A stretch of 62,185 bases of DNA, the filler included, from Vezdaea acicularis (Eukaryota): NCBI GenBank assembly GCA_026025075.1. It is 5 parts of 5 records of this genome, joined end to end, with 100 filler letters (N's around TTAATTAATTAA, not from the genome) between each part and the next. Parts side by side here need not be neighbours in the genome. Positions count along the whole stretch, not along the records: positions 25,543 to 37,745 come from JAPEUI010000245.1; 4 more parts are not named here. One strand, 5' to 3'. The notes under the pieces are model-generated. The model was given only the letters and a program-made list of their open reading frames with translations, had not been told where the DNA came from and ran no database searches. Shown one piece after another: positions 16,514 through 37,845 of this stretch (the first letter of the stretch is position 1; each line of letters begins with the position of its first letter). The position numbers were made by a program, and so were the translations under genes.

Positions 16514-16588
16514 TGTGTCTGTCTGTGTGCGTGTGTGACGGTGCGTGTGAGAGAGTGCGTGTGAGAGAGTGCGTGCGTGCGTGCGTGT
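16514..16588. repeat. GT/GA-rich microsatellite-like tract upstream of the bZIP gene
   Basis: tgtgtctgtctgtgtgcgtgtgtg...gagagagtgcgtgcgtgcgtgcgtg. Confidence 0.6.
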
Positions 16589-19500
16589 CGATGTCCGCCC
16601 TCCGCGTTGGCAGAGGGGAAACGGGGGCGGGGTGTCGTTGTTGCGCCCATTGCCCGTCCTCCGCCGCCGTGTGGTTCGGCGTGCTCCTGGATACGGTGTC
16701 CGAGCAAGGCTTAGGGCCATCTTTTTCGGCCCTCTGTCGCAGGTTAATTTGGGGTCGGCGAAGGGGAGATCGGAGGGGGAGACCCTGGTCCGCCCTCGTC
16801 CGGAGAGTCGGCCGTCCGTGTGACGGAGCGTTCGCGAGCAGCCTGAGGGGCGGATGGCGGATGGCGCGAGGCTCGGCGAGGAGCGGCGTCCGGGGGGTGA
16901 TCGGCCGTAGGCTATAATGGGAGATTTCGACGGGCGAAAATAGACACAAATTAGCCCGGATGCAGTAAGCGAGGAGCGGGGGCCGGCACGGTGGGGGGCG
17001 GCAAATGCCCCCAAATTAGGTCGATTTAAACATAGGTTAGCCTCTGCGCGCAAACGACGCAGCCAATCAGCGCGGCGGAGGCCTCGGGGGAATCGCAGCC
17101 AGCTGCATGACAAGCGCATCGCGCAACGCGCAACGCGCAACCCCCCCCCCATTATAGTTCAGCTCTCTGCCCTACGCCGACCACCCGGCGTCACCCACGG
17201 CCGCTCCTCCCCTTCGCGGTGGCACGTCTGACAGCGTGCCGCTGCACATGATACGCGACGGACGGCGGGATGCATTCCGCGGGTGGAGGAAGAAGCTTCT
17301 CACCGAGCGCCCCTTCCTCTCTCCCTCCCCCCCCTCCCCCCGCGGCCGTTCCCCTTTCCCTCCACAAGGCTCGCAGGGCTGCAGATAGCTTAGAAGGTCG
17401 GCTGCGTCGTGCTAACCCCCGTTTCGTCCGTCTATCCGTCTATCCGTCGTTGCCTTACCGAGAGCAGACGCGCAGAGAGACAGACAGACGTGACTTGGGT
17501 CCGGCACGCGGCGTCAGATACTGACATACGCCCGCCAGCGGCAACAGCAGCAGCACCATCAGCAACAGTAGCAAAAACAGCAACGGCAGGATTCTGCTCG
17601 CGTGTGCTGAAGGGGCTGGTGGGTTTAGCGTCGAGTTGGAGAGACGATCGACGAATGCCGCCGCACGGCGCGCAGGCGTTCACATCGCTCGAGAAAGAGC
17701 GGAGAGCGAGCGACAGAGATTGCAAATGGGCGCACCAAGGCGACATGGACGATGAGCAATCGCGATGGCGATGGCGGTGCTCCCTCGGTGTGGCCCTTAG
17801 CTTTCCGCCTAGCCTTCCGCCGTTGTGCTTGTTTGATGGGTCAATGCCACGCTCAAAATACGACTCTGATACCACGTTAGAAATCCATATTTCACATCAA
17901 GGCCATTCGGAAGCACGGCATGATACGTCATGGGAGCCTGGCGCATCGTGGACAAAGGTAGGGTTTCTTCTAAGTCCGAGCCTTCGTCCGTCGTTGCGGT
18001 CCACCGCTGTCTTGCCCACGCCAGCTGCTCGGTCGTGCTCCGGGTCATTCATTTAGAATGCTGACTCCATTCCCCTTCGCCCACGGAGGCCCCCGATGGA
18101 CATGAGCTACCGCCATTTGGCTGCGACGATCTCCCTCGTTGTCTCGTGCTAGCCTGTTTCGCCAAGCGAGGACAAGCGACGACGGTCCTCCCTAACGGGC
18201 CTTTTTCTCCTCCTCGTTCCACTTTCGGCAGGAGGTTCACCGTGGGTTCCAACAAAGATCCAACGAATGACGCGGCAGCGGACGACGGGGACGAATCACG
18301 GATCATAGGTGACAGACGGAGAGGGAGTCTGTTGCGTCCGAAAGATCGAGTCCCGGTCATATCGGAGATGTGCTGTGCGCGAAGGGCATGGATGGATTGG
18401 AAAGGGCAGCGCATGTTCCACCTTGAGACGGACGAGTTCTTCTTCAGATGGGGGGAGGCACGACTGGGGTAGCTCGACGCCTGCCGAAGCCTCCACCGCC
18501 AGTGCGTCTGCCAGATGGGCGGCGCGCGGGCCTGTATCACCCCAAGGGCGCGGTGAGCACGAGCGTGCACGGTCGACGGTTGGCCGGCGGATGGCGATCG
18601 TCGTGATTTAAGATTCCCGGCCATTACCAAGCATGCCATGCACGAACACCGCTGACCAAGCGCCTAGGCCGCATGGGGCAAGGCTTGCGTGCGCGAGCAG
18701 GGGGTTCGTGCCAAGCCACCCCTCCTCTGCCGCTCTTGCCCTGTCACGGCCTGTCATGGCCTCCTTCTCTTTCTGTTCTTTTTGTTCCTTCCGGGGGCCG
18801 GAGGTTGATTGGCCGATTCCCCCGGGTGAGCGAGGGCAGCGCGCAAACGAATTAGCGGCCATTCGATGTCCTTGCTGACTTCCTCAGCTCAACCACCCCA
18901 GACCTCTTGTGCAGAGCCCCGATCTAGCACACGGGGCATCTCGGTCTGATTGGCGGTCCTGCTTTGACTGGACTCGGCGATAGAACCCCAGAATGGCCAA
19001 GCCTCAAAGACCCTGAGTATGCCCGCTCATTCAGACTTGGCTTTCCTTGTCCCCAATCCGAGTGAAGCGATCCTCGTTTCCCATCATGTCCTCCCAAAAA
19101 GGCATGGATCATGTCGCGCACAGGAGGCAACGCACTCCCTTTCCCCATTCGGTGATCGGCCAATAATGTCAGGTCAGGATCGGGTTTGATGACTGATTTC
19201 CTCCGACCGCCGAGGACCTCAGGGCCGTAGCGGTGACTTTGCAACACCGCACCAGATGGACGCGGATCCTTTCTGTCTATTGCAGAGTCCATTGAAGAAG
19301 AGCACTCGCACGGTATGAAGCGATCATTGGGGAGACTATGGATGATTTGGGGGCGCTTCAACGGGGTTTCTTCGGCGACGAATCCGTTTGCATATGCGAG
19401 ACTGATGATATTCACCATGCCACTTGGCGACCAATGGGGGGCTGACGTTATGAGTCCTCCTCTCAAGGCAAGACCATGACCGCCGTGTAGACGTTTTCCT

Positions 19501-19882
19501 CTCACGATCTCGGAAGATCCTCAGCCGTTGAAACTGAAAATCTGCGCCCCACCGCGAGATTTAGCCGAGGTCTGCAAGAGCTGAAGGTTTTCCCCAAAAT
19601 GCACAACAACATCTCCTGCACTTCACCGCCCCGGCCGTGTCGGGCGTGACGGAACTCAGCAACGCCGAAACAATCGAGATGTGGAATCCCATCAATTTGA
19701 TTCATCCCCTAACTAATACACCCGGTAAACGGCTGGGAAGTCCCGCTTCGATATCGTATCAATATACAGGCTTTCAGCTCCACCGCCCACCTCACACACC
19801 CCATGTTCGCGACCACCGGCGACACTGCCACATTTGGGAGAAAAATAGCTAACCGATTCTCTTACTTTGCCGGGGACCAGCT

Positions 19883-20726
19883 TTATTCATCGCCCTTCTT
19901 GGATTTCTTGCTTTTACTCGCCGGAGCACCTTCCTTCTTCTGGCGAACTTCTAGACGTGTCCACGATTCTTCCTTGTCCCACACGAATCCTTCCAGAATA
20001 GGCAGCTCCAGTTCATCATCGGCCTTGGACATTTGTTTTTCAGTAAAAAGAATGCTTCATGAATGTTCGGGTGAACGGATTACGAGTGTGGGACCAACCT
20101 TTTTCTTGAATTGTTTGTAGATTGCATCTAGTGCATCCTTGATCGTGACACCTTTCAGATTTCGGGCGGTCACTTCCAGTCCGAGCGGGAAATGTAGGTC
20201 TATCTTCTTGACCGGTGGGGTCGTGAGGAATTTCTTCAGTGTGTCCTTTTCATCCAACGTCGCAGGTGAAGTGTTCAGCTTCCTGCGTCCTCGGTCAGTC
20301 ATGGGGATCTAGACTGGAGACTGCCGTGTGGAATGAGATATATCAAAGAGGAACGGGTGGAGAGGAGCAGGAGAGGGAAATTAAAGATGATCCACCGCAA
20401 TGTGGCACGCATTCGGTGATTTCACTCATGAAGAGGAACAGACAGCATGCTCCGTTTACGCGACATCAACCTACCAGTTGAGTTTCTGTGTCTCTTTCGC
20501 TATCTGCAGCTCTTTGCCTTCCTTTTCTATTACTGACGCATTAGAATTCATTGGGTGATGAACTATGGAAGGGCCACCGACCTAGGTCACTGATATTATA
20601 CACGCCAGCAGCACTGCTGCTCGTCCTCCGATGTCCTTTCTCCTTTGCAGCATCTTTCGGGGGAGAAGACGATAAGCCGGACACGGCCGAGTCAACTTTG
20701 GTCAAAGGCGCAGTATCAGCGGACAT
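19883..20726 (-). CDS. Small fungal hypothetical protein, about 4 exons
   Basis: Spliced MSADTAPLTKVDSAV...HRRTSSSAAGVYNISDL|EKEGKELQIAKETQKLNW|KLNTSP...LHFPLGLEVTARNLKGVTIKDALDAIYKQFKKK|ADDEL...GFVWDKEESWTRLEV...KKGDE*; splice sites keep the frame. Confidence 0.8.
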
Positions 20727-23118
20727 GATTGCAGTGTATGGTGTTGGGGGTATTTGTTTCAAGCTCAAAGAACTTCAACGGTTGGTAGCGGTTTGATTGC
20801 AGCAGGTTCCAAGTATACCTAGCGGATGAATAGAAGGAAAGCTGTCGTTCAGGTACGGCAGCAAGGAGGAGAGGTATGATGGCGGGATGGGTTCCACCAT
20901 CGATCTCGTGCGGGGTCACAAAGACTGACGCACCCACCCAGGTGAAGTGAGGGTGTGACCAAGGCCCGGAAGCTCCTTGGACTACCCCGCAATTGGTTAG
21001 GAAGGGCAAGGAGCCAGGGCCTTGCGACCAAGCTTGAGACGCCCTGATCCTCATTAGACATCACCGGGCCGTCATCATCATTGCATCTATCATCCTCTGT
21101 TATCATAGACACTCCACATGTGCATCGCATGAGATGTCTGTAGTTAACGCGTCGCTTCTCTGCGATCAAACGACTTCCTACTTCTTCCAGCTCTCTAGTG
21201 CTTCCCCGCATTCGCTTCGCTACGCTGCAGTCTCCACCAGGGTTGTGAGGGAGCACTAATGCCACCGAGTACTGCAAGGCTGAATCGCAGACAACGTCCT
21301 CTACTTTCATTATCCTGCCGCTTGCCGCTTTTAAAAATTCCACACCACCTCATACATGTGAGCGTGATGAAGGCGTAGTCGAATCGCATGCCAAGTTTGG
21401 CACTGGATTACGCTTGCCACGTGACCCACACCTCAAGGCGTGCGACAGGTACATCGGATCTCGGTTTACGCCCCAAGTTGAAGGACACGTCTTAAATTGG
21501 GAGTATCTCGCATGATCCAAATTGAGGAGCTACTCATCTCGCCTGCCTTAGGCATGTCGATACTTGTATCGATTGCTTTGGGTCCTCCTTTTATAACCCT
21601 TTTCTCTCTCCTGCCATGAGCATCTTTTGGCTCCAGCCATCCGTCAACGATCTTTCCGCTTCTCTTCTCCACCTGTTTACTATGGAGTGAACTTGTTTCA
21701 AAACCTAACAGAGTAATAGACACCACAACAAGGAATAGGCTTAGCTTCCAAATCTCTTTGCATTCACAACAATAGCTCTCCAACCCTCGAGCGATTCCTC
21801 AGCAACGACATAATATGCCACTCGCCGACTCATCCTGGAATGTGCAACCCTGTTCACCAAGTGCCAGTGCTTGAATAGTCAAGGGCGTGCAAGTCAATAC
21901 CGTCTAGCCCATACGTTTCTAATGCCGCGAAGGCTGCGAAGTCCAGCAATGCTAGCCTTGGAGGCATCTATCAGTTACCTCCCACCGAACAGAATTCATA
22001 TCTTTCAAAAAGATGTAGTCTTGAATTTTCGATTGTGTTTAACGTTAACGTGCATGGGACATCAGATCTCTAACCTAAGCAAAAAAGTTCCCCACTCATC
22101 TCCCGTCCCGCTCACCCTAAATCCCCCTCCTGTCGGACCAACACTCTTCTATTCTCCCATCCGTCAATGCTTCCTATCACACGCGTTCGTCTACTCGCCA
22201 TCCACAGTATGGTAGGGCTATTTACAGCCGACGCTGAGTGGGCAGAATGACAAGACTGAGCTTATCGTCTCCTTTCACTTACTCTCCGAATGAACATCCC
22301 GTGGAATAGTAGCAGCGATTTTCAATCAGATATTTGTAAGGGAGCGAAGAATCAATATGGACAATGAATACCTAAAACTGTGCTCCTCGCTCCCGTCCCA
22401 AAGTCAGGGTGGATTTGAAACCAGGGGTCTGACTTGGCTGTGAAGGGCTCTGTCACTAAGATTTGAAAGACTTGTAGCTCCGAACTTATGGGCCAGGCTA
22501 ATAGTGACGTGAAGAGAGTGTATGAAGCGTGTGGGATCTCCAAAATCCCGACCTTTCTGGTTCCAAGGGGCCTGGAATTGAATAGTTGAGCCCTTTGAAA
22601 AGACGTAAGCTCGAGTCGCGTGAAGTAGGCTGAGATGATTCGCTTTTGAGCGTTAGCAATAACTAGCCTACCGTAAGGCGAATAGGAGGTAATTATCTCA
22701 TTTTACATCAGTGGAAGGTCTTATGAAATGGGCTCTCCACGTATATAGTTGCCAAGATCGACTCTGGGCACTCTCGGCCAAGACCCAGGAGACATTTCAT
22801 TTTGCACTTCACGCTAGCGCGGTTCTATGGGTAACGCCTGGAATTCAAAACCGTCAAAACTCTCAGAGGTGAGAGCCGCAATGCATGATACTGACTATAC
22901 CACCCACGTGTCCGAGAACTCCATGTGTGAGAGTTTGACGCAAACGCCAACCGTCTGGGACATCCCTGCTCCTCAAGACATTCCGTAAGAACGATCTTTT
23001 TCGCCCCCTCCCCAACAATATGAGAAAGCCAGAGATAAGGGAGCCATCGTTGACCTTAACTGTGGCATGCGCAGTAATCAAATGAAGTGGCGATTCGCAT
23101 TAACCTTGTTTCCAACGT

Positions 23119-24201
23119 TCAGCCACCATTCCCCGCTCCGTTCGTGTCCATTCTACCAGCCGTGTCGACCAGCATTCCATTTGGATCGACAACCTGTTTA
23201 CGCCTTCGGATTGGTGCCTTCTTCCTTTTAGTGAAAACTGCTCCGTCGTCACTGTCATCCTCGTTACTCGGTCCATATCGTCCCAGGTGTATGCGTCGTT
23301 CATCTAATTCATTAATGTCGTTTGGTTTTGATCGTAGCCATCTCATCCGTGGGCCTCCCTTCGATACTTCTGCTACTTTGAAGCCATATATCTTCGGCTC
23401 ATAGATCTTTCCATCGCCGAGCCCAGGCGCTAAGTTTGCTGTCGGCACGCCATTTATTGTCGTAGGTTGAGGTGGTAATGACTCTTGCTCGGAAGAAGCA
23501 GCCGTTAGGCCAGATAGAGTCGAAGGGGATCGTGCTTTCTCTATAGCTGGTAGTCCCTCCGCTCTGGCGCTTACGTCAAGGTCAGGAAACGTAAAAAAGA
23601 AGAGATTTCCAAACGTCGTTCCAAAGTATGCCCCATCAACAGACTGGAATCGACTGTTTGGTGGAACGTAGACGTCCTGACAACTTGGACAGTAAAGCTT
23701 CACAGTATCTATTCCAGGTGTGTCCGTGATACCGACTGGCAGTACTCTGCAGCTATTGCAGAGCGTGCGTGGACAAACTCCGAAGTGTTGCAGGTCGTAT
23801 TTCTCAGCCATTTGTTGAATACCAGGCCTTGATGTGATGTACCGCTGATGAATGAGGCCGTAGAGTGTCTCCGCCGAAGTCTCTATCATACTGAGATCGC
23901 TAGCTATTCGCATGTGCCTTCTTTCGCCTGCTCTCCTATAACCAACTGGCTTATCCTCACCTAGCGCATCATCATCCTCGTCTTCCTCCTCTTCATCTTC
24001 TTCCTCCTCCTCATCTTCTTCTGGTTCAACATCTAATATCATCTCAAGGGCTTCTTTGTACATCTGTACTTGCGACTGAAGCCCGGTAAGATTGAAGTCA
24101 TCTTCTATGAAATCTTCTGACACCTCGGCGAAGTATTCGTGACCGAGCAGAGAGCAGAATGATGATATCCAGGACTCAGGTTGAGGTGACGAGGTAGACA
24201 T
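23119..24201 (-). CDS. CKB1: Casein kinase II regulatory beta subunit, single coding exon
   Basis: SWISSFCSLLGHEYFAEVSEDFIEDDFNLTGL, long acidic loop, zinc ribbon CPRTLC...CPSC, VDGAYFGTTF and YEPKIYGFK. Confidence 0.96.
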   Translation of the reverse strand: MSTSSPQPESWISSFCSLLGHEYFAEVSEDFIEDDFNLTGLQSQVQMYKEALEMILDVEPEEDEEEEEDEEEEDEDDDALGEDKPVGYRRAGERRHMRIASDLSMIETSAETLYGLIHQRYITSRPGIQQMAEKYDLQHFGVCPRTLCNSCRVLPVGITDTPGIDTVKLYCPSCQDVYVPPNSRFQSVDGAYFGTTFGNLFFFTFPDLDVSARAEGLPAIEKARSPSTLSGLTAASSEQESLPPQPTTINGVPTANLAPGLGDGKIYEPKIYGFKVAEVSKGGPRMRWLRSKPNDINELDERRIHLGRYGPSNEDDSDDGAVFTKRKKAPIRRRKQVVDPNGMLVDTAGRMDTNGAGNGG

Positions 24202-25319
24202 GGTTGCGTGTGGTAGACCTGGAAGAGAGTAACCCTCTCAGGTCTCTCAGACTGCGCAGTGTGAGTGACAGGCCGATGATTGAAACAGTCTGAAGGCCAG
24301 GTGTGATGATACTATTTGAATGATGAAGCGCGCTCGTAATCAGTAAGGCTCTACTTTGTATGCAGTTGAACTAATGGAATGAGAAGAATTGGAACTCAGA
24401 TCGCCTGTATGAAATTGCAACCACCCACAGGTGAAGAAGTTGGCGTTGAGAGTGAAGCCCTAGCTTCCTAAGGCGCAGCGCGATTAGACTTCATTGGAAT
24501 TGTCTCTCGTATAGAGAGGGCATTGTGATATTGAAGTTATTGCAGTTGCGGATCCTTAAGCGAGCCATTTGTTCCCAGGCCACAATATCGGGGTTTGCTG
24601 CGCTGCGGTGGCTTTCATATCCCGCTTACGTGCTCCACTATAAGAGGCCCTAAACCAAGAACTCATTTGTATTCAAAAAGGAACCTGAGATCTTCCTCGC
24701 TACACTGCCGTGGTTGCCAACCTACGTAACTTGAAGCACGCAAGGTTGCCATGTCGGTCGTTCCGCGTCTCGTCACTCACGTCGAATTCGTGGCTTCGCC
24801 TGCGCGCGGGTTATCTTCGTCGGTTATGTCCCATGTCGCGAGCTTTTGCCAGCTATGCCAGCTTGGCTTCGTCGTAAGGGTTGGTCGGTTGCCAACATTC
24901 CGCCAACATCATGTCCGTTCAAAAGCTGTGTCAGACCGGCAACAGCCCTTGGTTTGCCAAAAAGCCCCCGAAAGTAAAATAGATATAAGTAGACGGGATT
25001 GGTGGCTCGTGAGCAATGGGTTCTTTCTGAGAGCGTCAGCAATTAATGATAATTGTTCATAATGATTGCTTGATAGTAGTCGCCGCTTCCATCTTACCCT
25101 ATGCCTTGCTGAATCTTATCCCACAATTGAACATTCCCCCTTTTCCTCTTCTCATTTCCACGAATGTTCATCATCTTTTTAGATCATACGAATTGAACAG
25201 TGGGGAGTTAGTGGTATCTGTGGCACTTTGGCATTGCTACAGTGGCTTTGTAGGGGGTTGTGACGCCTTGTGGTGTCTTGCGCGTGGTTTTGAAGCCGTA
25301 AAAAGGGCCCGGCGTATTT

Positions 25320-25442
25320 TTAGGGTTAGGGTTAGGGTTAGGGTTAGGGTTAGGGTTAGGGTTAGGGTTAGGGTTAGGGTTAGGGTTAGGGTTAGGGTTA
25401 GGGTTAGGGTTAGGGTTAGGGTTAGGGTTAGGGTTAGGGTTA
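25320..25442 (+). repeat. Telomeric (TTAGGG)n, about 20 perfect units at the contig end
   Basis: Perfect array with the G-rich strand running 5'->3' toward the contig end. Confidence 0.96.
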
Positions 25443-25542
25443 NNNNNNNNNNNNNNNNNNNNNNNNNNNNNNNNNNNNNNNNNNNNTTAATTAATTAANN
25501 NNNNNNNNNNNNNNNNNNNNNNNNNNNNNNNNNNNNNNNNNN
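25443..25542. other. Artificial contig linker
   Basis: N44-TTAATTAATTAA-N44. Confidence 0.98.
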
Positions 25543-26772
25543 AAAATACCCCTGCTTATTGAAAGCACTTAGGCCGTCTTGAGCTTAGACCCGCTTCCTG
25601 ACGGCCAATAGAATTGTTCGATAAACACATCCCGGCCGTGATGCTGGCAATGTCGGGTGTGACAGCCTAGTTGGGCCTAAGTGCTTTCAATAACGACGAA
25701 ATACCCCTGCTTATTGAAAGCACTTAGGCCGTCTTGAGCTTAGACCCGTTTTCTGACGGCCAATGAAATTGTTCGATAAACACATCCTGGCCGTGATGCT
25801 AGCGGTGTCGGGTGTGACAGCCTAATCGGGCCTAAGTGCTTTCAACAACGACGAAATACCCCTGCTTATTGAAAGCACTTAGGCCGTCTTGAGCTTAGAC
25901 CCGCTTCCTGACGGCCAATAGAATTGTTCGATAAACACATCCCGGCCGTGATGCTGGCAATGTCGGATGTGACAGCCTAATTGGGCCTAAGTGCTTTCAA
26001 TAACGACGAAATACCTCTGCTTATTGAAAGCACTTAGGCCGTCTTGAGCTTAGACCCGTTTTCTGACGGCCAATAAAATTGTTCGATAAACACATCCTGG
26101 CCGTGATGCTAGCGGTGTCGGGTGTGACAGCCTAATCGGGCCTAAGTGCTTTCAACAACGACGAAATACCCCTGCTTATTGAAAGCACTTAGGCCGTCTT
26201 GAGCTTAGACCCGTTTTCTGACGGCCAATGAAATTGTTCGATAAACACATCCTGGCCGTGATGCTAGCGGTGTTGGGTGTGACAGCCTAATCGGGCCTAA
26301 GTGCTTTCAACAACGACAAAATACCCCTGCTTATTGAAAGCACTTAGGCCGTCTTGAGCTTAGACCCGTTTTCTGACGGCCAATAGAATTGTTCGATAAA
26401 CACATGCTGGCCGTGATGCTGGCAATGTCGGATGTGACAGCCTAATTGGGCCTAAGTGCTTTCAACAACAACAAAATACCCCTGCTTATTGAAAGCACTT
26501 AGGCCGTCTTGAGCTTAGACCCGTTTCTTGACGGCCAATAGAATTGTTCGATAAACACATCCTGGCCGTGATGCTGGCAATGTGGGGTGTGACAGCCTAA
26601 TCGGGCCTAAGTGCTTTCAATAAGCAGGGGTATTTCGTCGTTGTTGAAAGCACTTAGGCCATCTTGAGCTTAGTCCCGTTTCTTGACGGCCAATAGAAAT
26701 GTTCGATAAAGACATTTGGGCTTTGAGGCTGAAAATGTTATTTGTGACAGCCTAATTGGGCCTAAGTGCTTT
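25543..26772. repeat. 155-bp tandem array: 7 near-identical units plus 1 degenerate unit, running off the contig start; palindromic junctions
   Basis: Units start (AAATACC) at 25544, 25699, 25854, 26009, 26164, 26319 and 26474; the arms GGCCTAAGTGCTTTCAA / TTGAAAGCACTTAGGCC are reverse complements. Confidence 0.96.
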
Positions 26773-26894
26773 TTAGATCGAGGGAGTAGAAATAAATAAA
26801 TTAAAAGCTATGCCGACAAACTTTAAGTGTTAAGGCAAAGATCAATGATCAGTAACTCAGAATCAATTTCAGAAAGCCTAAAGGGTAAAAATAG

Positions 26895-27800
26895 TTCGCA
26901 GATCAAAGATTGATGTCTCGAAATCAATTCCAAAGGATCATCAGATTGAGAATCGTCAAATCCGTGATCGATGACGCGAAACCGATGCCGGAAGACCAGG
27001 AGGGCTGGAATTGGCAGATTCCTGAAAGACGACTCGGAATCTATTTCAAAAGGCCAAGCGGGTAAAAATCGACAAGTCAAAACCAATGCCGGAAGATCAA
27101 GAGGGTCGAAACTGGCAGATCAAGAGCTGATCCCAAGAGTTGATGTCTCAAGATCGATTCCAGAGGATCATCAGATTGAGAATCGTCAAATCCATGATCG
27201 ATGACGCGAAACCGATGCCGGAAGACCAGGAGGGCTGGAATTGGCAGATTCCTGAAAGACGACTCGGAATCTATTTCAAAAGGCCAAGCGGGTAAAAATC
27301 GACAAGTCAAAACCAATGCCGGAAGATCAAGAGGGTCGAAACTGGCAGATCAAGAGCTGATCTCAAGAGTTGATGTCTCAAGATCGATTCCAGAGGATCA
27401 TCAGATTGAGAATCGATAAATCCGTGATCGATGACACAAAACTGATGCCACAAGATCAGAAGGGCCAAAATTGGCAGGTTCATCATGGATGACTCGGAAT
27501 CTATTTCAAAAGGTCAAGAGGGTAAAGATCAACAAGTCAAAACCAATGCCGGATGATCCAGAGGGTAAAAACTGGCAGATCAAAAAAGTTGATGTCAAGA
27601 GTTGATGTATCAAGATCGATTTCAGAGGATCAACAGATTGAGAATCGACAAATCCGTGATTGATGACGCAAAACTGATGCCAGAGGACTTGAAGATTCAA
27701 AATTGGCAATTCTTCACTCAATGTCTGGAAACTGCTGCCAGAACATTGAATCTATCAAAATTGACAGATTGAAATCCATTCCACGATGATGACCACGCAA
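26895..27800. repeat. 230-bp tandem array, about 3.5-4 copies, with an internal ~40-nt sub-repeat
   Basis: ATGAC(G/A)C(G/A)AAAC recurs at 26971, 27201, 27431 and about 27662; duplicated ORF fragments appear in the ORF track. Confidence 0.9.
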
Positions 27801-27808
27801 AACATCGA

Positions 27809-30800
27809 TCAGTTTTCTCTGGTTCTTTCCAGTTGATTTTTGAATTCTAAAGCTAGATTTAGCTTGGTGTCTATGCCAAATTGTATTGGATTTTTGATTA
27901 ATCCGGAGTCTTCAGAATGAATGTCACCTTCAGTCAAAAGAAGAAGCTGATCTGCTCTCGTCAGTTGTTCATGAATTTCTTGCCAATGTGGATTTGATCC
28001 AGTACTAAGACGGCTCTCCTGCTGGACTGATTGCTCCAAAGCTTCAAACATTCCAAAATACAGTGGATTCAGCTGCGGGATAACCCAGTTGGTCCGAGAC
28101 AATGTTTCCATCTCTTGCAGCATTTCAAAAGTCTTGGGCGCATTGTGCTTTGAAGCTGTTCGTATGACAGAGAGTTTGTCAATATTGTACTGCGGTATGA
28201 TCCACATCTTTTGGCAAGCGTGAAGATTGATCACTTTTTCAAAGCTTTTTGATGTCTTTGGTCCTAGCACATCTTTGACAATATGTCGAAGCCGGCGTTT
28301 CCATTCTCGAAATGGGCTGTGTTCCCATCCACGTTTTTTGACTGCGCCAGGCATGTTATCATCTAAACCAAACAGTCCAGCAATGCGGCCAATCCAGGTA
28401 CCAGTATTGTATTGATCCAAAAGGCTCACACCACGACGGGCGGCTTTTTTAACTAGGATCAGATGCGGCGGCATCTCCAGAAGTCTTGTTAAAAGATCAT
28501 AGCTAAATCCCTCTAGGCCTTTAGACTGTATTGCATCAAAGCGTTCTTGGACTATGTCTATTCTTGGATCCAATTCCTTGGAACGTTGACGCAGAATATC
28601 AAGGATCTCCAGTTGATAGGATTGAATGATCAATTCAGCTCCTAGTTGAAATACCCATTTGCGCGCATGAGGATCCAAGCTCTCCTTAGGAAAAGTCAGT
28701 GACCGCTGCAACCATTCCCGAAAAAGCGCCAACTCTCGATGTTCTTGCTGAAGAAGATTCTGAATCCTCAAGGTTTGGTTTCTTTGTCTACCAAATCCAT
28801 TGATTGCTAGTCCTAGTCGAGGAATGATATCTGGCTTGAACATTGGAAGACCTTCCCATAGGATTAAATCTGAGGGCAACTAAGCTAAACCAGTCTGTTC
28901 TAAACTTTTGCAATAATCCAGCCCTAGACGTGTTGAAACTTCATTCAATTCTTCATTCTCATCTAATTCACTTTCATTTTCTTCCAAAAGTGATTTGACT
29001 TTCCAATCATGCAACCATATAGATCTTTGCAGCAATTTTTGTACATTTCCCAAGTTGGAATGCAATGTTCTGATGATAGCGCTAACCATCACACCATTGA
29101 TCATCTGTTGCTCTGCAGATGCAGGAGAAAGTCCAATGGGCCCTGGATTAACTTGACAGATCAATGCTTCTAGACACATCAACCATCGATTGATGTCATA
29201 TCCAATATATGTATTGACATCTTTGGTTCGAAATACATAATAGGGCCGATGTCGATATGGATCGTTGCTTGCTGCGTCATTTAAAGCAGCATCTAACTGT
29301 AGGCGGGAAAAACGTTCAAGAGTCATTCGATATTCTTGCCGTACACCAAAGCAGGTATCAATGGTAGAACATATCGCTTGATTTACCCGTTGTTTAGCAT
29401 GTTGATATATCTTTAGCAGATGCTGGCGTTTGTCTAGATGGGAGGTTTGCCTGCCCCGATAGCTCAACCCATACCAACGGTTGAGCAGGTCTTGATCATA
29501 TGCTAATCCTTCCAGCTGCTGATGATCAAATGGAACCAATCCTTTTACTGGAGTAGTAAAGAGATCTTTATGAAGGCTATAAGCTTTGTTAAAAGCAATT
29601 CCGCCTTTGGCATGCCATTTGTTTGTTGGCAATATTTCAGCACGAGTTGACATGATATCTCGAGTTAATGCCCAAGGAAACTCTTGAGTGCGAAGAAGTG
29701 ATGATCTTTGATCCACAGCTTGAAATTGAATATTCCAGCTGGCACAACATTTGGATTTTCGCAAAAGAGTTACTGCTTCATTCTGAAATGGTTCTGGAGT
29801 GTCTTCCAGTCCTAAATCTACCCAACATTTTTGTGCAGGCATATACCGTTCATTGGCATGAAAACATTGCCGAAGATGACGGAAATAATCTTGTCGAACC
29901 TGTTGAGGATCCAGCTTCTTGGTAAAGAGCTTTAGATTGTGCCCTTGCACAATCAAAAACACCTCCCGGAAAATGGCAAATCTAGGGCTGTTGCATTTCT
30001 GCAAGACAAGATTCCAAAAACAATCCAAATACTCCTCAGGAATGCAAGATCGAAGATCTATTGGCTGTTGCACACCGGTAGGATGCCACTCTTGTTTGGC
30101 GGTTGCTTTGATTTTAACTTCTGCAAAACTTCGAGGATGATGTTGCAGAATATCATCTGGACAACTTTCGCGCAAGGACGGAATGATAATGTTGTCAATC
30201 CATTCCTCCTGTTGTACATCTGTCAAATGAGTTCCATCCCGATGAAGAACAGGCATATGAGGAAAGAAAACATGGCACTGATAATTGAATCCGGCAGAGG
30301 CAAGTCCATGTCCTAACCTTTGGTTTTTTATCTGATGCAGGCGTTTTCCTTGAAATATTACATAGGGATTTTGGGTCACACGTCGCAAGTATGGAGGCCG
30401 ATAGGCTAGATCAAATCCATCCCGATGTACGCCCAAACTGGTAACCTCTGCTATCAAGCTGTCTACATCCCAACGTCGAGATATTTGGAGAGAAGATTCT
30501 TGAATAGGGATACCAGACTCTATTTCCGAACAGGCAACATTTAAACTTGGAGGAATTCCATCTTCCCCCGCTAACAATGCTTTCCAAGCAATGTTCCGAT
30601 AGTCTCCGTGTCTTCCATCTCTTGGTAACAGATTTTCATAATTTATAGGAAAGGTATTGGAGTGACTGGGACTGTCTCTTCTTGGCATATGCCTATTCCA
30701 ATATTGACACATTTCCTTAAATCCCAAGCTTGATTCGTCTGATAAGTTTGTTCCTGCATTGCAAAAACAAGTGGTGCTTCAGGATTTTTGCAGTCGTTCA

Positions 30801-31450
30801 TCAATCTCATGATCCAATCCTAAAGCATCGTCTGAATTTGTTTCACTCAATGTCAAAGATTGAGTGTCTGCAATATCATCGTCTCTTTCCAAGACATTAG
30901 TTGCTATACTGGAAGAGATATTTGAGCTATCCAAAAGCTCTAAAGATTGTCTGAAGGCATCCAGCTCAAGTCCGGCCTCATCAGCAACATCTAATTGGCC
31001 TTGAACAGTTGATGGTTCCTGATTTGATGCAAATGATAGATTGAGAAGTTCATTAGATTCCGAATTAAGTCCATCTGAAGTAGTTGAATGAAAATCTAGT
31101 AGAATATTTAAGTCAATATCGGATTCTTCATGTGCTTCTGCCGGCAAAAGAGGATGATCTGTTTCTGGATTAGACTCAACATCAAGTTGAGCATCAGCAA
31201 AAAGATTGGCAAGTCCATCGAAAGGCTCATTCTGTTCGCTTGCAGCATGCAAAACTGGTGAGGAAATTGATGGAGCCAAAACAGCTGAAATAGATGATGA
31301 CGTGGATTCTGGTAAGACGCTCAGTGGTGTTGATGAATAGGACTGATTCAAGGATCTAAGTTGATAACGGTTTTGCCGTGCTTGTTGAGCCTGCAGCTTT
31401 TCTGCTTGAGTCTTTGCTTTTCGCCCCATGATTTTGATGGGAGACATCAA
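27809..31450 (-). pseudogene. Single ~1200-codon intronless reading frame of unknown function with two in-frame stops (TGA 30779-30781, TAG 28880-28882); probably mobile-element associated
   Basis: ORFs 30779-31450, 28880-30727 and 27809-28879 are in the same frame and read through as ...LQKS*STTCFC... and ...TGLA*LPSDLILW...; AT-richer than the host genes. Confidence 0.7.
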
Positions 31451-31528
31451 ACGCTATGGCGGATGCGTTGATATTTATTAACATGGTAGGAAGGCCACCT
31501 ATGGCTTGTAGTGGCGTGTCTATAATGA

Positions 31529-31858
31529 CCAATCATAAGTAGAATAAACCGTCAAGCGTGATATGAAAACTGCCTATTCCATTTTTGTTAGGTCTGGTTT
31601 AATGGAACTAACCAATTGCTGATTGATTCAGCTTAAGCGAGATTAACACAAGCAATTTTCATACATGCGCGATTTCTTTTATCCAATGATTCAATGACAC
31701 GGCAGGTTATCAGAAGTTGTATGGTCGCTACCATAGATAGAGCACACTAAAAATTGAAGTGTAACCAATGAGATGAGAAATAAACCGTCAAGCGCCATTA
31801 GTCCTTGACGCCAAGCGAAACGAAAGCGCGCTTGACGGTTTATTCATCGCTTGATAGG
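31529..31858. promoter_or_regulatory. Three copies of CCWAT-N9-AATAAACCGTCAAGCG (two direct, one inverted) upstream of the long ORF
   Basis: 16-mer at 31543-31558 (+), 31779-31794 (+) and 31829-31844 (-), each preceded by CCAAT or CCTAT with a 9-nt gap. Function is inferred. Confidence 0.6.
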
Positions 31859-32942
31859 CTGCGTTGCATTAGAGGCGCATACTAATGCTCGCTTATGCAC
31901 AAATAACCAATTAGCATCTATGCCGTCCCTCCACTACAACCACGCCATCCCGGTATGCAACCATCTTCTAGGCCGTCTGGCTGCTGGAAGAAATTCCCAT
32001 AATCCTAATCGTGTCACATCATCAATGCTAACTCTAGATGTCGACACAGATGATTTTTTTACGCTAAGTCTGTTGTCGAATCGTATAAAGAAGTTCGTGA
32101 GCGGCACGGATATTTGGGCGTGACCTGCCAAGACCGTAACGCAAGGAATCAACTAAGACCACAAACATTCACCATTGCTATTGTGCTCATAGAAAGCTTT
32201 CGTCTTGTTTCCGCTCAAGCCAGGGCCGTAGCTTCTCGCGATGCCATTTTACTTCTTGTTGTCGCTCTTTATGCTTTTGCTGTTGCTTGGCCTCTTATCA
32301 TAGTTGCTCTTGCTGCCGTTCAAAGCCGAGCGTTCTTTATTGCAGGCGCCATGACTACAACAGGCTAGAGGGCTTGTGCAAATTTACTCCTCCGATGTTG
32401 CTTACGCATGGTTAAATCTTTCTTAGCCCCTATTTGCATTTGTGACCACATCCGTCGAGCATCTTAGACATGCTTGGGTTCAGCCTGATGCTCCTCGGAA
32501 GAATCCACTTAGGCAACGCCGCCCCCAACTTTAAGACGAAGCAGTCCTATTAGTTACAAATTGGATCTATCATGTAGCTTGAAGGGTGGCAGGGCCGCAT
32601 CTCAAGTCAAGTCAGGCTCAGGGTTAATAACATGGAACTCGAAGTATATCTGGTAATTGGCGCAGTTTCGACAGTATCCTCCAAGTTTGAACATCACCAA
32701 GTCATACGGCTCGAATCATGGAGTCTCTAGCCATGGTGGTAGCGCTTTTTCAGATCCCCACGTTAAGGAGTCGGGCCCCTGGTCCTCGCAACGATCAAGG
32801 GATGTTGTATAAATTAGACAAAGGCCTCGGAAGAGCTCACGGTATAGTTTCAATCGATAGTCATTCCATTAGATAAATTTTACAACACTATAATCCCTGC
32901 GTGCGCTCCAAGCAATTAAACCCTCATCAAAACACCCTTTCC

Positions 32943-35191
32943 TCATATAAGGATAGACACTGCGGTTGCATTGGGGTCTAATACATCATAGGCAACCGTC
33001 TTATCGTCCATTTCGTCACTTGTCTTTTTGAACAGCTCTTTAAGCACTTTGAGATCTTCATACAGTTTACTCGCTGCTGCTGTAATAGCTGGAGTATCCT
33101 TTTTCTTGTAGAGGTTCCAAAGAGAAGCTGCGTAGTTTATCAAATTCTGGTCCTCAGCCACGCGAAAGCTGAGTAGATGTGGAAGATGTGAAGAGAGAAG
33201 CCATTCACGGGGCCGGTTCACCGGGAGTGCTCGCAATACGTCATCTTCTTTGTACCGTAGTAATTCTGCTAGAGTTTTTGGTGGTGGAGCGAATAAACTT
33301 GCAGGTCTGTTGATCACGAATGATTGATAGTACTCTTGTAGATAATTAACGGCGGTGTGCTGCGGGGAGGCGATATGGATGCACATGGTGATTGCGTCGA
33401 CTAAGTCCTTGATAGTATTGATGAAGGGAAACGATTTCATGTTTCCTCCTGTCTCGCTGCGCATCTCTTGTACCCAATCCTTGATATACTGGTCATTGGC
33501 CACCTGATCATCACTTGTGTAATGGACGGCGAGCATCGAAGAGACAAATGTCGAAAGTACGCGCCACAAAAGAATCATATTTTTTCCATATGCGTAATTA
33601 TGTCCTTTCTGACCCGTTAAGTCATTAATAGGGAATCCACGCCTTGGTAGATCATTTGGAATATAATTCTCGGTCCAATTGAAGCGAGCATAGGCATCAT
33701 TTACAAAAGCGTATGTCTGGTCCGATGTAAATCCTACGAGGTCAACTATCACGTTAGGGACCAGGATGAATCGTGCGGCAGCATTGAGTGAAAGCGTCTT
33801 GAACCAGTGTGGTTCTAGCAAGCGGAAAATTGGATGGTCGGTTGGAAATGCGCGATGAGCAGCAACGATGGTAACTTCTTCGACGAAGTGTGCATTGACA
33901 AGATGGACCGCAATCTCATGGCGTGTCCAGTCAGCAACTTGAGCGCATGTCTTCGCGTACCGCCAGGGCCAGTCCGTTGCTTCGGGATCGCTTGCGCGGG
34001 CCAATACTGAGCTGCGCGGTTGCAAAGTTTTATTGAATATTACGACTGAGTTGTTCATAGTTCTCTTATAATCGATCACTATTGCCAATGGGTGAAGTTT
34101 TCCGTTGGCATTCAACTGAAAGAGACTGACAGCAGCGCATGCGTAGCGTGTTCCGTCGTCTGACTTCATGAGATAGTCCGGGGCAACGTTAATGGCGTCG
34201 CGAAAGTAGCTGTAATCCTGAATGTAAAGAGACTTAGGATCGGCGGACGTGAGAAGACTCAACACTCTCTTATTAGACTGTGCAGCTGCAGCATCTTTGA
34301 ACTGCTTGACCCATTCTATTGGTGCAACTGTGATTGTAGCTGGGTTTGCACCAGTAAACTGTTGTTGGGCGAATACTGCGTCGGTGTACCAATCCACTCG
34401 ATCGCCAATATTCGGATCAACGTAAATGTCCTTTTTTTCGCGGCGGTACTCCTTGTCGATCTGTTCAATTTGAGCGATGGAGGTCGCGTCTTCCGGCTTT
34501 CCGTGTAAGAAATCGGTAATGAACGTGGGAACGATTTGTGGGATGAGAGTCGCCGTATCAGCCAGACGCATGACGTTGAAGATATCCCATAGGGGAACGA
34601 AGTCTGCAGGCGGGATCAGATTGAGATGTGGCGGATATTTGTCACTTCCTGGCACTTGAAATCTATAGAGGATCTTCTTCGTCTCATGATCGATTAGTTG
34701 TGGAATGGTGGGCTCTAGGTTGGCCACGTCAAAGAACGAGGCAAATCTAATCGTGCAAGTTAGCCCAAGCTTATTTCAACTTTGCTGTAATTAGGCTCGT
34801 AGGAATACGCTAATGACAGTGAAGCTGATGTATAGGATTACTCATCTACACACCTATTTTCGATACGGTCGAACATTTCTGTCAATGCCAGCTGCGTTCC
34901 ATGGTACGTACCTTCCTCTATAAGATTCCTATTATCGACGGGTGGTGTCAAGCTCTCTGGGTTTCCATCGGTGGCTTTGCTCAATGATAACTGTCGGGGG
35001 TAAAGAGCTAGGTTGTTGAGTTCCGACGTGAAGATGCCTTTATCCCATTGCTTAAGATTGATTTTATCCACCGTGGGGGGTAATTTTGGTTGCGGCTCCA
35101 ACAATTGCTGGCTCAGTACGTTCAGTATGGTGCTTGGTATATTGAAAACGGCGCCCACCAGCCTGTGGGCAGTGTTCAGTATCCCGAACAT
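32943..35191 (-). CDS. Lipoxygenase, Fe-LOX type, about 713 aa; exons 35191-34854 and 34746-32943
   Basis: WRYAKTC, HEIAVHLVNAH (hexamer His ligands), QHTAVN, C-terminal SILI with a terminal Ile; no evident signal peptide. Confidence 0.92.
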
Positions 35192-36559
35192 GATTGTTAG
35201 CCAAACGACGTGGTACTCTGGCACAAAGATGGAGTAACAGAGTGTGATATGCCACAGTCCAAATCTACGCTGATAAGCGTCGAATGAATCCCATTCTCAT
35301 GGCCCGGAGGGATCTGGGAGGTTTTAACATCATTTGGGCAGACAAGCCTGTGTCAGCGGCAGTCAGTCAGCCTGCCATATGTGTGAGCTGAAAAAGGGTC
35401 TCGACCGCTAAAAAAGAGGTAAGCTCGATCCGATGCATAGAGGGCAATGCGAGCTGAAAAGCATTCGAAGGGTTCTTGGTCGTATTGGTGAAAGCATGCA
35501 TTGGGGCCCTGCCGCATTCCGTTCTTTGTATTGGTCGTTCGTGCATGGTCCTTGTTGCCCTGCTTCGTTCAAGGAGCACATGTTCAGCACGAGGGCGGTA
35601 TTTACCGTTCTGACGGAAAAGGCTTTCAGCCCTCACCTGTAACTGTCAAGTGCCTCGGCAGTACCAGCGAGTAATTGAGAATGCGGTTCCCATAGAAGAG
35701 TTGAAGCTACCAGGTAGAGCTCCCTGCCTTGGTCACGGAGAACTTGAAGGTCGACTCCTATTCGAAGACAACGACAGGACCAAAGGGTGGGGTTCTAGTG
35801 TCATTGGGTCGCTCCATTAAACTTTCTCAGGGAAAATCGTTCCTCTGTAAGCTTAGCGAGGTACCTGACCCCTTAAATTGTATGGGGGATACTTCGCACA
35901 CCAAACAAATCCCCGCCACTTACTTGGCCGTGCAGAGTGCGGTTTTTTCTGGCACTCGCGTAGGGCCTCATTGATCGCAGAGCTCGTGCGTCGGTAACAT
36001 CTTGGATCAAAGGCCAATCAAGAGTATCCACTGCAGAGCTTTTGTTGGGCTAGGGACCGCAGACCGATGGTGCCTTCATTTAGGCATTATCAACTCATAA
36101 ACGCGCGTTCTTCACATGCGGGGCGTAAATGCTGGAGAGACGCTGACAGTTGTGTGGAGCTAGTGGAGTGGAATGGAACCTGGAATGGCGCTCGGACTCG
36201 ACACCATCACAAAGGTCATTCTGCAGCTAAGACGTCGTGGCGCACTTAGTGGACAGCTGGAGGTTCTGACCTATGATTTTTCGGACGTTTCGATGCGAGT
36301 TCAGCAAGCTAACCAGTGAGCTACCACTTTTACCAAACTTGCCCAAAATTTGGTGCTGGCTGCGCAGTAACAGGTCGCTACCACAAAAAGAAGGCTGCGA
36401 ACCGCGGCCATTGGACCAGGGGCCAGATTTTCTCAAATTATACGCATTGGATGGTTTTCTAAGCGATTTCTTACTTGACCAAGTGTGAGGCGCGAGCGTA
36501 TAGGCAGGCAACAGACTAGTCTCACTTTGGATGGCCGCATGCAATACGCATGCAAGTCG

Positions 36560-37163
36560 CAGGCAATAGTAGATAGTAGATAGTAGTCAATTGATGTCTC
36601 TTAAGATTAATACAATTGAATACTAAGGAGCTATTCTACAGTGCTTTCTTGCTTTCCTATTACAAGAATGTGGTGGCATTCATTTAGGGTGCGGCAGCGT
36701 GTTTTAGACAGCTGTTTTTGCTTAGACACCGGCGGCGCTCAGAGGGCATTTAGTCAGCGCACTTCTGACATATATATTGAGCTGGTTTTGCTAGAAACTT
36801 GGCATCAAATAGTTTTGGCTTACAGCTAGTTATTAGAATCTATTCATGTAATTGTAATTAACCTATTATATTGCTATATTTCTATTTTTCTATAGCTCAG
36901 TAATATTGTTAGCTATTGCTGGCAACCTACTTATTCTTATAACTTCTTTAACATGCAATAGCACTGCAGGCAAATAGCAAACAACATTTGGCCTACCATG
37001 CTTTTAGAATCAGAAGCAACTATTGTGTCTGTCTTTACATTAGCTTACACGTTTATAGATTTTTGCCTTCTAATAAAGCATTGATTTATCTTTTTACATT
37101 AGAATTAAATTATTTTTGAAAAAAGAATCAACACAAAAAGTATAAATGTAAAGACAAGCACAA
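36560..37163. other. AT-rich, TpA-rich degenerate region, probably a RIP-mutated repeat remnant
   Basis: Abrupt AT enrichment with many TA dinucleotides and stop codons; abuts an LTR-like element. Confidence 0.5.
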
Positions 37164-37745
37164 TGTAATGACTGTACTAGCCCCTAGCTTCTATCAAGCC
37201 TTTTGGGATGAATAAGGGGTAAGGAGGCTAGCTTCGCTTCAGCTTCGCTTCTGCTTCGCCTAGCTCCCTAGCACCTAGCATAAGGCCAGGTGGTTCTTAG
37301 ATCACCTGACATAGACGAGCGTAGCTATTAGAGCTGCTGCTTCCCTTAGGATAGCTCTTCAGCAATCAACTCATCTATTCATCTGAATAACTAGTAGAAA
37401 GGCATCCTCGCTTTGCTTTGTCTGATCTTTCTCCTATCTTGCCTTGCCTCGTCTTGCCTCGCCCCAGTACTATCACTGCATCTAGTCTTCGTCTGCAAGT
37501 TCTTGAGTCCTTGGGAGTTAGCTCACACGCCTACAGACCCTCGCTCTCTGACGAAGCACTGGCCTGTCCTTACACTTTGATTGCTCCTCATACTGTACCT
37601 GTGTGAGCTATCTTCGTTTCACTATCATGGATCCTTCTTCTCAGCCTATTATGATCTCACAAGAGCAACTAGAGCATTTTTCAGCGATGTCTCATCAGCT
37701 TGAACAGATGCAGCAGGAACTGCAAGCTTTAAGACAACCAACACC
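37164..37745 (+). mobile_element. Putative LTR retrotransposon 5' end: LTR about 37164-37480, gag-like ORF from 37627 truncated by the contig end
   Basis: Starts TGTAATGACTGTACTAG and ends CCAGTACTATCACTGCA (imperfect inverted termini, TG...CA); followed by MDPSSQ...QLEQMQQELQALRQPT, a coiled-coil-like start. Confidence 0.6.
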
Positions 37746-37845
37746 NNNNNNNNNNNNNNNNNNNNNNNNNNNNNNNNNNNNNNNNNNNNTTAATTAATTA
37801 ANNNNNNNNNNNNNNNNNNNNNNNNNNNNNNNNNNNNNNNNNNNN
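37746..37845. other. Artificial contig linker
   Basis: N44-TTAATTAATTAA-N44. Confidence 0.98.

Follow-up and report, generated by a model that had tools for sequence, protein, structure and literature searches.

The Y' elements of Saccharomyces are units of several kilobases with a long open reading frame (ORF), arranged in head-to-tail copies with short telomere-like tracts between them. Here, a locus of Vezdaea acicularis (assembly GCA_026025075.1) is compared with these and other elements. It was found in a stretch of DNA of 62,185 nucleotides (the window), and its large ORF encodes a member of a protein family that we call FAM. In the subtelomeres of Magnaporthe oryzae, according to extracts of Rehmeyer et al. 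(2006, PMC1635262), the TLH gene is flanked by blocks of tandem repeats; its 3' end faces the telomere, and telomere-like repeats lie upstream. The same extracts draw the parallel between the Magnaporthe TLH regions and the yeast Y' elements. Extracts of a preprint (bioRxiv 10.1101/721753) describe proteins of ~1,450 residues with the domains OrsD, DEAD, and Helicase_C, whose genes are typical of the subtelomeres in Fusarium, Pyrenochaeta, and Colletotrichum.

In this lichen-forming ascomycete, the locus appears to be one copy, with nonsense mutations, of a unit of ~5-6.5 kb that is repeated in the genome. We lean towards a selfish repeat unit with a new protein, associated with telomeres or subtelomeres in the manner of the TLH or Y' regions. 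On the minus strand, the unit would consist of a leader of ~0.6 kb with short palindromic motifs, the FAM ORF of ~1,210 codons, and 3' tandem repeats. The 3' block would be formed by a 230-bp array, probably followed by a 155-bp hairpin array in which the assembly broke.

Organization of the repeated unit in Vezdaea

The third piece of the window (25543-37745; 12,203 bp; contig JAPEUI010000245.1) holds the locus, and has a GC content of 0.446, versus 0.53-0.55 in the other four pieces. As shown in Table 1, the order is unique gene, leader, ORF, arrays, and contig break. A large ORF of about 1,200 codons had been proposed by the first-pass annotation, and was confirmed. It is interrupted by two in-frame stops, which were judged in an alignment with ten homologues; two of these sequences cover the TGA column, and both have Trp. 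For comparison, Logan contigs from four public runs (X1-X4), labelled as moss metagenomes and belonging to one single study, were used over 27690-37745. At the plus-strand bases 30779 and 28881, C replaces T in all four runs, so that both codons become TGG. Both stops are thus nonsense mutations of the window copy, or consensus errors, and intact near-identical copies exist in other samples. The annotation had read the stops as Trp; the residue was right, and the cause is mutation instead of an alternative code. An alternative or mitochondrial code with TGA as Trp (table 4) was rejected, as one stop is TAG, both codons are TGG in the four runs, and the lipoxygenase ORF nearby has no internal stop in the standard code. 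Repeat-induced point mutation (RIP) of the window copy was also rejected: the TpA/ApT ratio of the ORF is 0.49 and its (CpA+TpG)/(ApC+GpT) ratio is 1.85, the reverse of RIP.

Table 1. Positions of the unit, its parts, and neighbouring features in the window
Feature	Position	Strand	Remarks
Large ORF, family FAM	27809..31447 (31447->27812 = 1,212 codons, plus stop)	-	Two nonsense codons
In-frame TGA	30779..30781	-	Trp in homologues P0009 and P0010; TGG in 4/4 other runs
In-frame TAG	28880..28882	-	Trp or Leu in homologues; TGG in 4/4 other runs
Conserved core domain, 471 aa	29099..30511	-	Model pLDDT 93.8, pTM 0.90, built with 64 sequences
Probable 5' limit of the repeated unit	32033..32110	-	Summed depth of about 22-44 drops to 9.4; contig of single depth begins at 32033
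31-nt motif, copy 1 (contains the 16-mer)	31528..31558	+	81-111 bp 5' of the ATG
95-bp palindrome	31764..31858	.	Motif copy 2 (31764-31794) and inverted copy 3 (31829-31858)
230-bp tandem array	26906..27688	.	3.4 copies, 91% matches; degenerate copies widen the span to 26855..27708
155-bp tandem array	25544..26772	.	7.9 copies, 92% matches; cut by the contig edge
Arm-spacer-arm junction, units 7/8	26604..26660 (57 nt)	.	17-nt spacer flipped relative to the other six junctions
Lipoxygenase gene	32943..34775	-	PF00305, E 7.7e-49; single depth, one 3.5-kb contig; copy-number reference
Linkers N44-TTAATTAATTAA-N44	12674-12773, 25443-25542, 37746-37845, 50044-50143	.	None belongs to the element

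The unit looks multicopy in this lineage. In run X1, the summed contig depth, which by the tool's own caveat does not equal copy number, is 26-44 over 27690-32057 versus 9.37 over 32058-36425; the runs X2-X4 are alike. The ORF region reaches 3-4 times the summed depth of the lipoxygenase flank in all four runs. It is covered by short contigs that are 90-99% alike, and the lipoxygenase flank is covered by one contig of 3.5 kb. The only GACTTAGCG of the window lies at 32062-32070 on the ORF strand, close to the depth step; in the relatives described below, the same 9-mer is found ~40 nt inside the 5' end of the unit. We put the limits of the unit roughly at 26855 (or 25544) and 32063-32110, which corresponds to 5.2-6.5 kb. 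No empty site or excision joint was seen in the contigs of the four runs.

These depths might also be explained by an ordinary decaying host gene beside satellites, with the extra depth contributed by several strains or species in the metagenomes. The normal lipoxygenase gene 1.5 kb away and the window copy without RIP signature would agree with such a gene, as would the strongly conserved residues, which a functional protein would have, and the difference between contig depth and copy number. However, a mixture of strains would raise the lipoxygenase depth too, and this gene stays at single depth on one contig. The relatives are repeated and RIP-degraded inside single metagenomes, and share a common 5' end. 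Nearly all members are on short contigs, as repeats are (the longest are 3.7-14.2 kb for 10/10 members looked up). We consider this explanation improbable. Single-copy, syntenic homologues without flanking repeats, which had been named beforehand as the outcome that would speak for a cellular gene, were not what the analysis found.

The two different tandem arrays that had been reported downstream of the ORF were both confirmed by Tandem Repeats Finder. The 230-bp array begins ~100 bp past the ORF stop, and has the same dinucleotide signature as the ORF, a signature that the flanks and the 155-bp array lack. Contigs of runs X1 and X2 have loose ends at 27693 and 27718 that continue into array-like sequence. 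The palindromic character of the 155-bp array also held up: each unit has, in this order, a 20-bp arm, a stretch of 98 nt, the same arm inverted, and a spacer of 17 nt. The predicted fold of the arm-spacer-arm sequence as single-stranded DNA has -17 kcal/mol (z -8.35), with 0/200 shuffles as good, and this stable hairpin recurs 8 times within the array. The flipped spacer at 26604-26660 is the product expected from recombination or hairpin processing between arms. The 155-bp array opens at the very first base of the 12,203-bp contig. Since the window is made of contigs glued by N-linkers, position 25543, which had been taken as the left end of a module, is a contig edge and no biological boundary.

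Upstream of the ORF, the repeated 16-mers proved real. The 16-mer AATAAACCGTCAAGCG has three exact copies, at 31543 and 31779 in direct and at 31829 in inverted orientation; 0.03 copies are expected, and 0/100 shuffles reach three. The 95-bp palindrome that contains two of them folds at -21.2 kcal/mol (z -4.28). In the contigs of all four runs, loose ends were observed on both sides of motif copy 1, at 31528 and 31560, so that the motif has at least one further sequence context in these samples.

The link that had been drawn between the two flanks, through a common core TGACGG/CCGTCA, is at chance level. For the core CTTGACGG, 2.37 matches are expected in the window and 6 are present, a number that 5/100 shuffles reach; five of the six matches are mutual copies, and within the array it occurs in units 7-8 only. 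Between the downstream arrays and the region 5' of the ORF (31448-32200), the best common word has 10 letters, and 77/100 shuffles score equally. No inverted repeat beyond chance was found between the flanks that would link the two ends of the window unit.

The FAM protein family and its core domain

The best protein match of the ORF is "MAG: hypothetical protein M1824_002928 [Vezdaea acicularis]" (metagenome-assembled genome), with 99% identity. A word search found 11 homologues. With the profile of 11 sequences, 1,269 representative clusters were found at E<=1e-3, 882 at 1e-10, and 379 at 1e-30. A further homologue search, restricted to proteins of 2,999-5,000 aa, gave no member. The source names encountered among the members are all "hypothetical protein", and 10/10 clusters looked up are unnamed or carry the same label. 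Five organism labels were encountered among the members: Vezdaea, Coniosporium apollinis, Flavoplaca, Xylographa, and Teloschistes. FAM is a widespread protein family of Pezizomycotina, without a name, a Pfam model, or a solved or recognisable fold.

The earlier statement that the ORF product matches no recognised class was borne out by Pfam, PHROGs, NCBIfam, PDB sequences, Foldseek, and VIA. Three pieces of the ORF matched no Pfam family at E<=1. Among four homologues, no family exceeded its cut-off; the sole row was TPR_PSMD3_N in P0009 (E 0.067; 13.1 versus 27 bits). Of 31 long members, 0/31 had a Pfam match at E<=0.01. No reverse transcriptase domain was found by Pfam in the ORF pieces, the homologues, or the 31 long members, and no reverse transcriptase fold was matched. 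Pfam also found neither an HUH Rep (Helitron_like_N) nor a Pif1 helicase; the helicases beside the relatives are of RecQ or SNF2 type. The PHROGs and NCBIfam searches with FAM gave no match, and the PDB sequences searched with the FAM profile gave 0 matches at E<=1. ESM Atlas returned unnamed bacterial clusters only, at about 0.90, or nothing. In the main texts of the literature on Academ-type elements and on fungal telomere-linked and OrsD helicases, no description of FAM was found.

The protein is conserved from near residue 290 onwards as far as its C-terminus; its first 220 residues are of low complexity, with a short conserved basic start. The whole-protein model (pLDDT 68) gave nothing in Foldseek at E<=1e-3, and its best VIA-wide row was a helical stretch of Nup133 (Z 7.8). 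The core domain was modelled separately. With its model, Foldseek searches of PDB and BFVD gave no match at E<=1e-3, and VIA gave none that was convincing. In domain numbering, D232, Y311, R391, E393, and R442 are invariant, and D15, D17, K62, K194, K315, and H421 are near-invariant. In the predicted model, these residues sit mostly on β-strands, which suggests an active or binding surface on a sheet.

With either model, core domain or whole protein, the first two VIA rows were rolling-circle initiators of the Rep_trans type, 4cij_A (Z 6.1, root-mean-square deviation 4.8, 182 aligned) and 4cwc_A (Z 5.8); both lie below the noise guide of the search, a typical best Z of 7-8, and thus within noise. 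The TBP chains came next in the list (Z 3.9-4.9). In BFVD, rows 2, 8, and 49 were Inoviridae proteins, including G2P and REP (E 0.03-1.3). The alignment of the FAM profile with that of six Rep_trans proteins (PF02486 group), from six of seven plasmid loci considered, by hhalign gave a probability of 0.06%. The predicted resemblance to Rep_trans is no more than a lead. In none of the fold lists did the top 50 include an RNase H-like transposase or integrase, a tyrosine recombinase, or a reverse transcriptase, although absence from a top-50 list does not exclude an RNase H-like fold.

Related loci in metagenomes

A scan of metagenome contigs for FAM relatives gave 36 loci, at least 10 of them from one metagenome. 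Over 4-10 kb, identities between copies among related loci are 80-91%. In L036 (7576-12970), L019, L034, L031, and L003 (276-6140), a unit of 5.4-5.9 kb can be delimited. Nine aligned copies begin with TTRTAAGGGTTAGRGGGTTAGGAAT...GGACTTAGCGAAAATTT, a telomere-like sequence, in unrelated left flanks. Telomere-like repeats are thus present at the proximal boundary of 9/9 aligned relatives, and absent from the window copy. The flank of L002 has nine copies of a 12-mer containing TTAGGG, followed by GTTAGGGTTAGGGG. Over 13 loci, the sense strand has 14 occurrences of GGGTTAGGG and 0 of its complement CCCTAACCC, counts that are not independent of each other. The first 200 bp of the unit are conserved although the next 1.5 kb are replaced (L003 and L021 versus L036).

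At the 3' side, similarity among the units stops ~30 bp past the stop codon. A minisatellite of a 12-mer, with 2-21 copies, then follows in L005, L019, L034, and L036, and lies further off in L017 and L018. In L005, a partial next 5' region begins ~110 bp after the 3' end. The 5' and 3' ends of the relatives are unrelated, and no terminal inverted repeats were seen. No target-site duplications were visible at 6 left and 6 right junctions, where the 3' limits are uncertain. A supposed 12-mer array in L026 was rejected as a satellite; it is a coding acidic tail.

Fifteen of the 36 loci carry strong RIP-type signatures, with GC contents of 0.30-0.38, TpA/ApT ratios of 1.49-1.91, and (CpA+TpG)/(ApC+GpT) ratios of 0.37-0.71. 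Seven of 13 loci examined have no ORF of at least 180 aa, and L028 has no ORF of at least 120 aa.

Two loci show different kinds of decay. In L022 (1-1815), one strand has no C at all, with a TpA/ApT ratio of 6.4 and a (CpA+TpG)/(ApC+GpT) ratio of 0.0, which is extreme RIP; because of this composition, the apparent ORF of 605 aa there is an artefact. L010 (13,688 bp) has a FAM relative of 36% identity with normal GC, no RIP signature, and no ORF of 180 aa. This locus is decayed by a route other than RIP.

Helicase genes beside FAM

A helicase gene lies near FAM on the same strand in 14/36 loci, which represent 10 locus types; many of the remaining loci are too short to tell. In L003, an ORF of 1,583 aa with OrsD, DEAD, and Helicase_C domains comes after the FAM ORF in the same orientation, and the best PDB matches of this helicase are RECQL5, RECQ1, RecQ, BLM, and WRN. 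L002, L004, and L020 match L003 at 96-99%, and have the same helicase neighbour. The order of FAM and helicase is preserved in the RIP-degraded copies L029 and L030. Weaker helicase-like stretches lie beside FAM in L008, L016, L017, L022, L031, and L032. Directly upstream of FAM and on the same strand, L012 (670-4149) has an ORF with a SNF2-related domain, and L035 (351-4625) has an ORF with Helicase_C only. The FAM proteins of these two lineages are 27-43% identical to that of L003. Judged from these sequences, FAM appears to pair with more than one helicase family. In L017, GGGAGACTTAGCG recurs where the FAM unit has ended and the helicase unit begins (12780-12830; compare L003, 6140-6230); the FAM and helicase units may share a leader motif. 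Two Fusarium cases in the extracts of the preprint mentioned above (10.1101/721753), in which OrsD helicases adjoin "hypothetical proteins" of 1,255-1,830 residues, can be set beside FAM by description only.

The helicase neighbours bear on two alternative explanations. In the first, FAM would represent a new class of autonomous mobile elements, in which the protein itself cuts or nicks and joins the element ends, for example as a Tyr/metal nuclease with a Rep_trans- or TBP-like saddle. It would team with a RecQ or SNF2 helicase as the Helitron Rep does with Pif1, and the hairpin arrays and palindromic motifs would be its recognition sites. The same-strand helicase genes in 14/36 loci are consistent with this, as are the common 5' end in differing left flanks, the RIP-type signatures of 15/36 loci, and the first 200 bp that are conserved despite replacement of the next 1.5 kb. 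The protein and the arrays also offer support: the invariant D, Y, R, E, and R and the near-invariant D, D, K, K, and H lie on strands, Rep_trans initiators head the VIA lists of two separate models, Inoviridae proteins occur among the BFVD rows, and stable hairpins recur 8 times in the 155-bp array. However, the Z of 6.1 is below the noise guide, the E values of the BFVD rows are 0.03-1.3, and the hhalign probability is only 0.06%. Neither terminal inverted repeats nor target-site duplications were seen, nor was an empty site or an excision joint, and the motif link between the flanks is at chance level. We regard this explanation as possible, though doubtful.

The first-pass annotation had proposed an undescribed mobile module, either a new transposon family or a recombination system. 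What stands of this is repeated, selfish-like DNA (3-4 times the depth, variants of 90-99%, RIP in the relatives), and the proposal itself is kept here as the alternative just described. The CACTA- or Foldback-style details do not stand, as no inverted repeat joins the two ends and the shared core is at chance level.

A more specific form of this alternative can be formulated, which we consider unlikely. FAM would then be an unclassified class of eukaryotic mobile DNA in Pezizomycotina. Its protein would be a new DNA-processing enzyme with a β-sheet "saddle" distantly like Rep_trans, acting on hairpin or telomere-like termini and recruiting RecQ or SNF2 helicases. If true, it would be a second, independent "Rep plus helicase" solution beside the Helitrons, and could be a selfish ancestor of the fungal telomere-linked helicase regions.

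The second alternative is a divergent DDE cut-and-paste transposon of the Academ/AcademH or KolobokH kind, which combines a transposase with a DEAD/Helicase_C helicase. According to extracts of PMC10799480, AcademH and KolobokH carry DEAD and Helicase_C, and AcademH is a low-copy element in Ascomycota. FAM has about 1,000-1,300 aa, adjoins helicase ORFs, and has conserved D...D...E. According to extracts of PMC5751038, the RNase H-like domains of Academ and Kolobok have no Pfam similarity, and Pfam therefore does not decide against this alternative. Against it, no RNase H-like transposase or integrase appeared in the top 50 VIA-wide or Foldseek rows, in spite of a core model of pLDDT 94, and the conserved Glu is on a strand of the model and not on a helix. 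Neither terminal inverted repeats nor target-site duplications were found, and the L003 helicase is RecQ-like with OrsD, which is the subtelomere type. We consider a DDE transposon improbable too.

Evolutionary interpretation of the unit

The reading as a telomere- or subtelomere-associated selfish repeat joins the telomere-like 5' ends, the tandem repeats, and the subtelomere-type helicase neighbours of FAM. The order of parts in the window copy, from unique gene to contig break, agrees with the layout given by Rehmeyer et al. for Magnaporthe. The unit would be located near a chromosome end. It may have spread mainly via recombination or break-induced copying, primed in tandem or telomere-like tracts. 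The substrate of the FAM protein would be DNA, because conserved Asp, Glu, Tyr, Lys, Arg, and His lie on β-strands and RecQ or SNF2 helicase genes are neighbours of FAM in relatives. The unit may spread by end-to-end recombination or by the FAM protein's own activity.

Several observations weigh against this reading. A terminal telomere tract was found in 0/37 sequences (the 36 loci and the window contig): there was no run of at least 3 TTAGGG, and none under a RIP-tolerant pattern, in a search over related contigs that are short and break in repeats. The 12.2 kb of the window copy have neither a telomere-like 5' end nor a helicase gene. MAFFT gave no convincing alignment of the window leader with the 5' ends of the relatives, with which it has only a 9-mer in common. 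The position of many loci in RIP-degraded AT-rich DNA fits a dispersed transposon equally well. L019 and L036 share sequence again beyond an insertion of ~6.8 kb, so that the 3' limit is blurred by nested insertions. All four depth runs belong to one study, and summed depth is not copy number. Between the window copy and the near-identical copies, the 38 best-supported differences in the ORF comprise 16 synonymous and 22 non-synonymous ones (318 more differences are unlisted), a split that indicates only weak constraint among close copies.

In many ascomycetes, among them lichen and rock fungi, FAM lies in DNA that is repeated and targeted by RIP. FAM units currently appear as "hypothetical proteins" on short contigs; the family profile and the conserved 5' end are markers for repeat annotation in fungal genomes and metagenome-assembled genomes. 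If the units are at chromosome ends, FAM would be a second protein beside the TLH RecQ helicases in fungal subtelomeres, whose gene content is poorly understood, and a handle on their copying. If FAM mobilises the unit, a new transposon class would be defined.

Contig edges and neighbouring sequences

The five contigs of the window are 12.0-12.7 kb each, ordered by length, and joined with N44-TTAATTAATTAA-N44 linkers. Any feature that spans a linker is an artefact, because the contigs are unrelated and artificially joined. The tract (TTAGGG)20 at 25320-25442 closes the second piece and marks a real end of a chromosome. The adjacency of this piece to the contig of the locus is an artefact. No common sequence was found between the two contigs by blastn; the subtelomere of the second piece (12774-25319) is unlike the FAM contig, and therefore at least one chromosome end lacks this unit.

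The lipoxygenase gene, 1.5 kb from the ORF, is apparently intact and open under the standard code. In the other runs, small indels lie just outside this gene (TAAG after 32412 and a 10-nt insertion after 32935). At the right end of the contig (36426-37745), the summed depth is 118-190, versus 9.4 over the lipoxygenase region, and the contigs of runs X1 and X4 have joints there that "go back" or lie on "opposite strands". A second repeat, unrelated to the unit, lies at this opposite contig edge.

Comparison with known systems

The Rep_trans initiators (RepD/RepSTK1; 4cij and 4cwc) and the Helitrons are like FAM in the weak best structural rows, the conserved Tyr and acidic residues, the helicase partner, and the hairpin-bearing repeats. 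The differences are that the profile-profile probability (0.06%) and the Z score are below noise, and that FAM has no HUH or Helitron_like_N domain and no Pif1. AcademH and KolobokH, as described in extracts of PMC10799480 and PMC5751038, share with FAM a large protein that Pfam does not recognise beside a DEAD/Helicase_C helicase, and a low copy number in Ascomycota. They were compared by description only; FAM differs in that no RNase H-like fold, terminal inverted repeats, or target-site duplications were detected, and its helicase is of the OrsD-RecQ subtelomere type.

The MoTeR and FoTeR non-LTR (long terminal repeat) retrotransposons, as described in extracts of PMC12857005, are similar in having a unit of 4-7 kb, a single ORF of ~3.5 kb, variable tandem repeats, telomere repeats at one end, RIP decay, and co-location with TLH helicases. 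Unlike them, FAM lacks a reverse transcriptase and a REL endonuclease: Pfam gave no family at E<=1, and no fold of a reverse transcriptase was matched. The orientation is also different. In FAM, the telomere-like repeats of the G strand lie at the 5' end of the sense strand, whereas the FoTeR 5' ends face the chromosome tip, according to the same extracts.

Compared with the Y' elements of Saccharomyces, FAM belongs to another protein family, and the arrays of the window have units of 155 bp and 230 bp. The two can be likened in the several-kilobase unit with a long ORF, apart from chromosome-end position. In both, amplification would presumably proceed by recombination, and the partial next 5' end ~110 bp past the 3' end in L005 resembles the head-to-tail arrangement.

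The TLH region I of Magnaporthe oryzae was compared on the basis of the extracts cited at the outset. The central ORF of the FAM unit encodes no helicase but an unnamed protein without known fold; the window copy has neither a helicase nor a telomere-like tract, and a terminal telomere was found beside none of the copies. On the other side, both have blocks of tandem repeats with the 3' end of the ORF towards them, and both occur in several places per genome and are prone to mutation. The telomere-like repeats upstream are a further likeness, seen in the FAM relatives only, as is the TLH-type RecQ helicase that lies beside FAM in L003 and L030.

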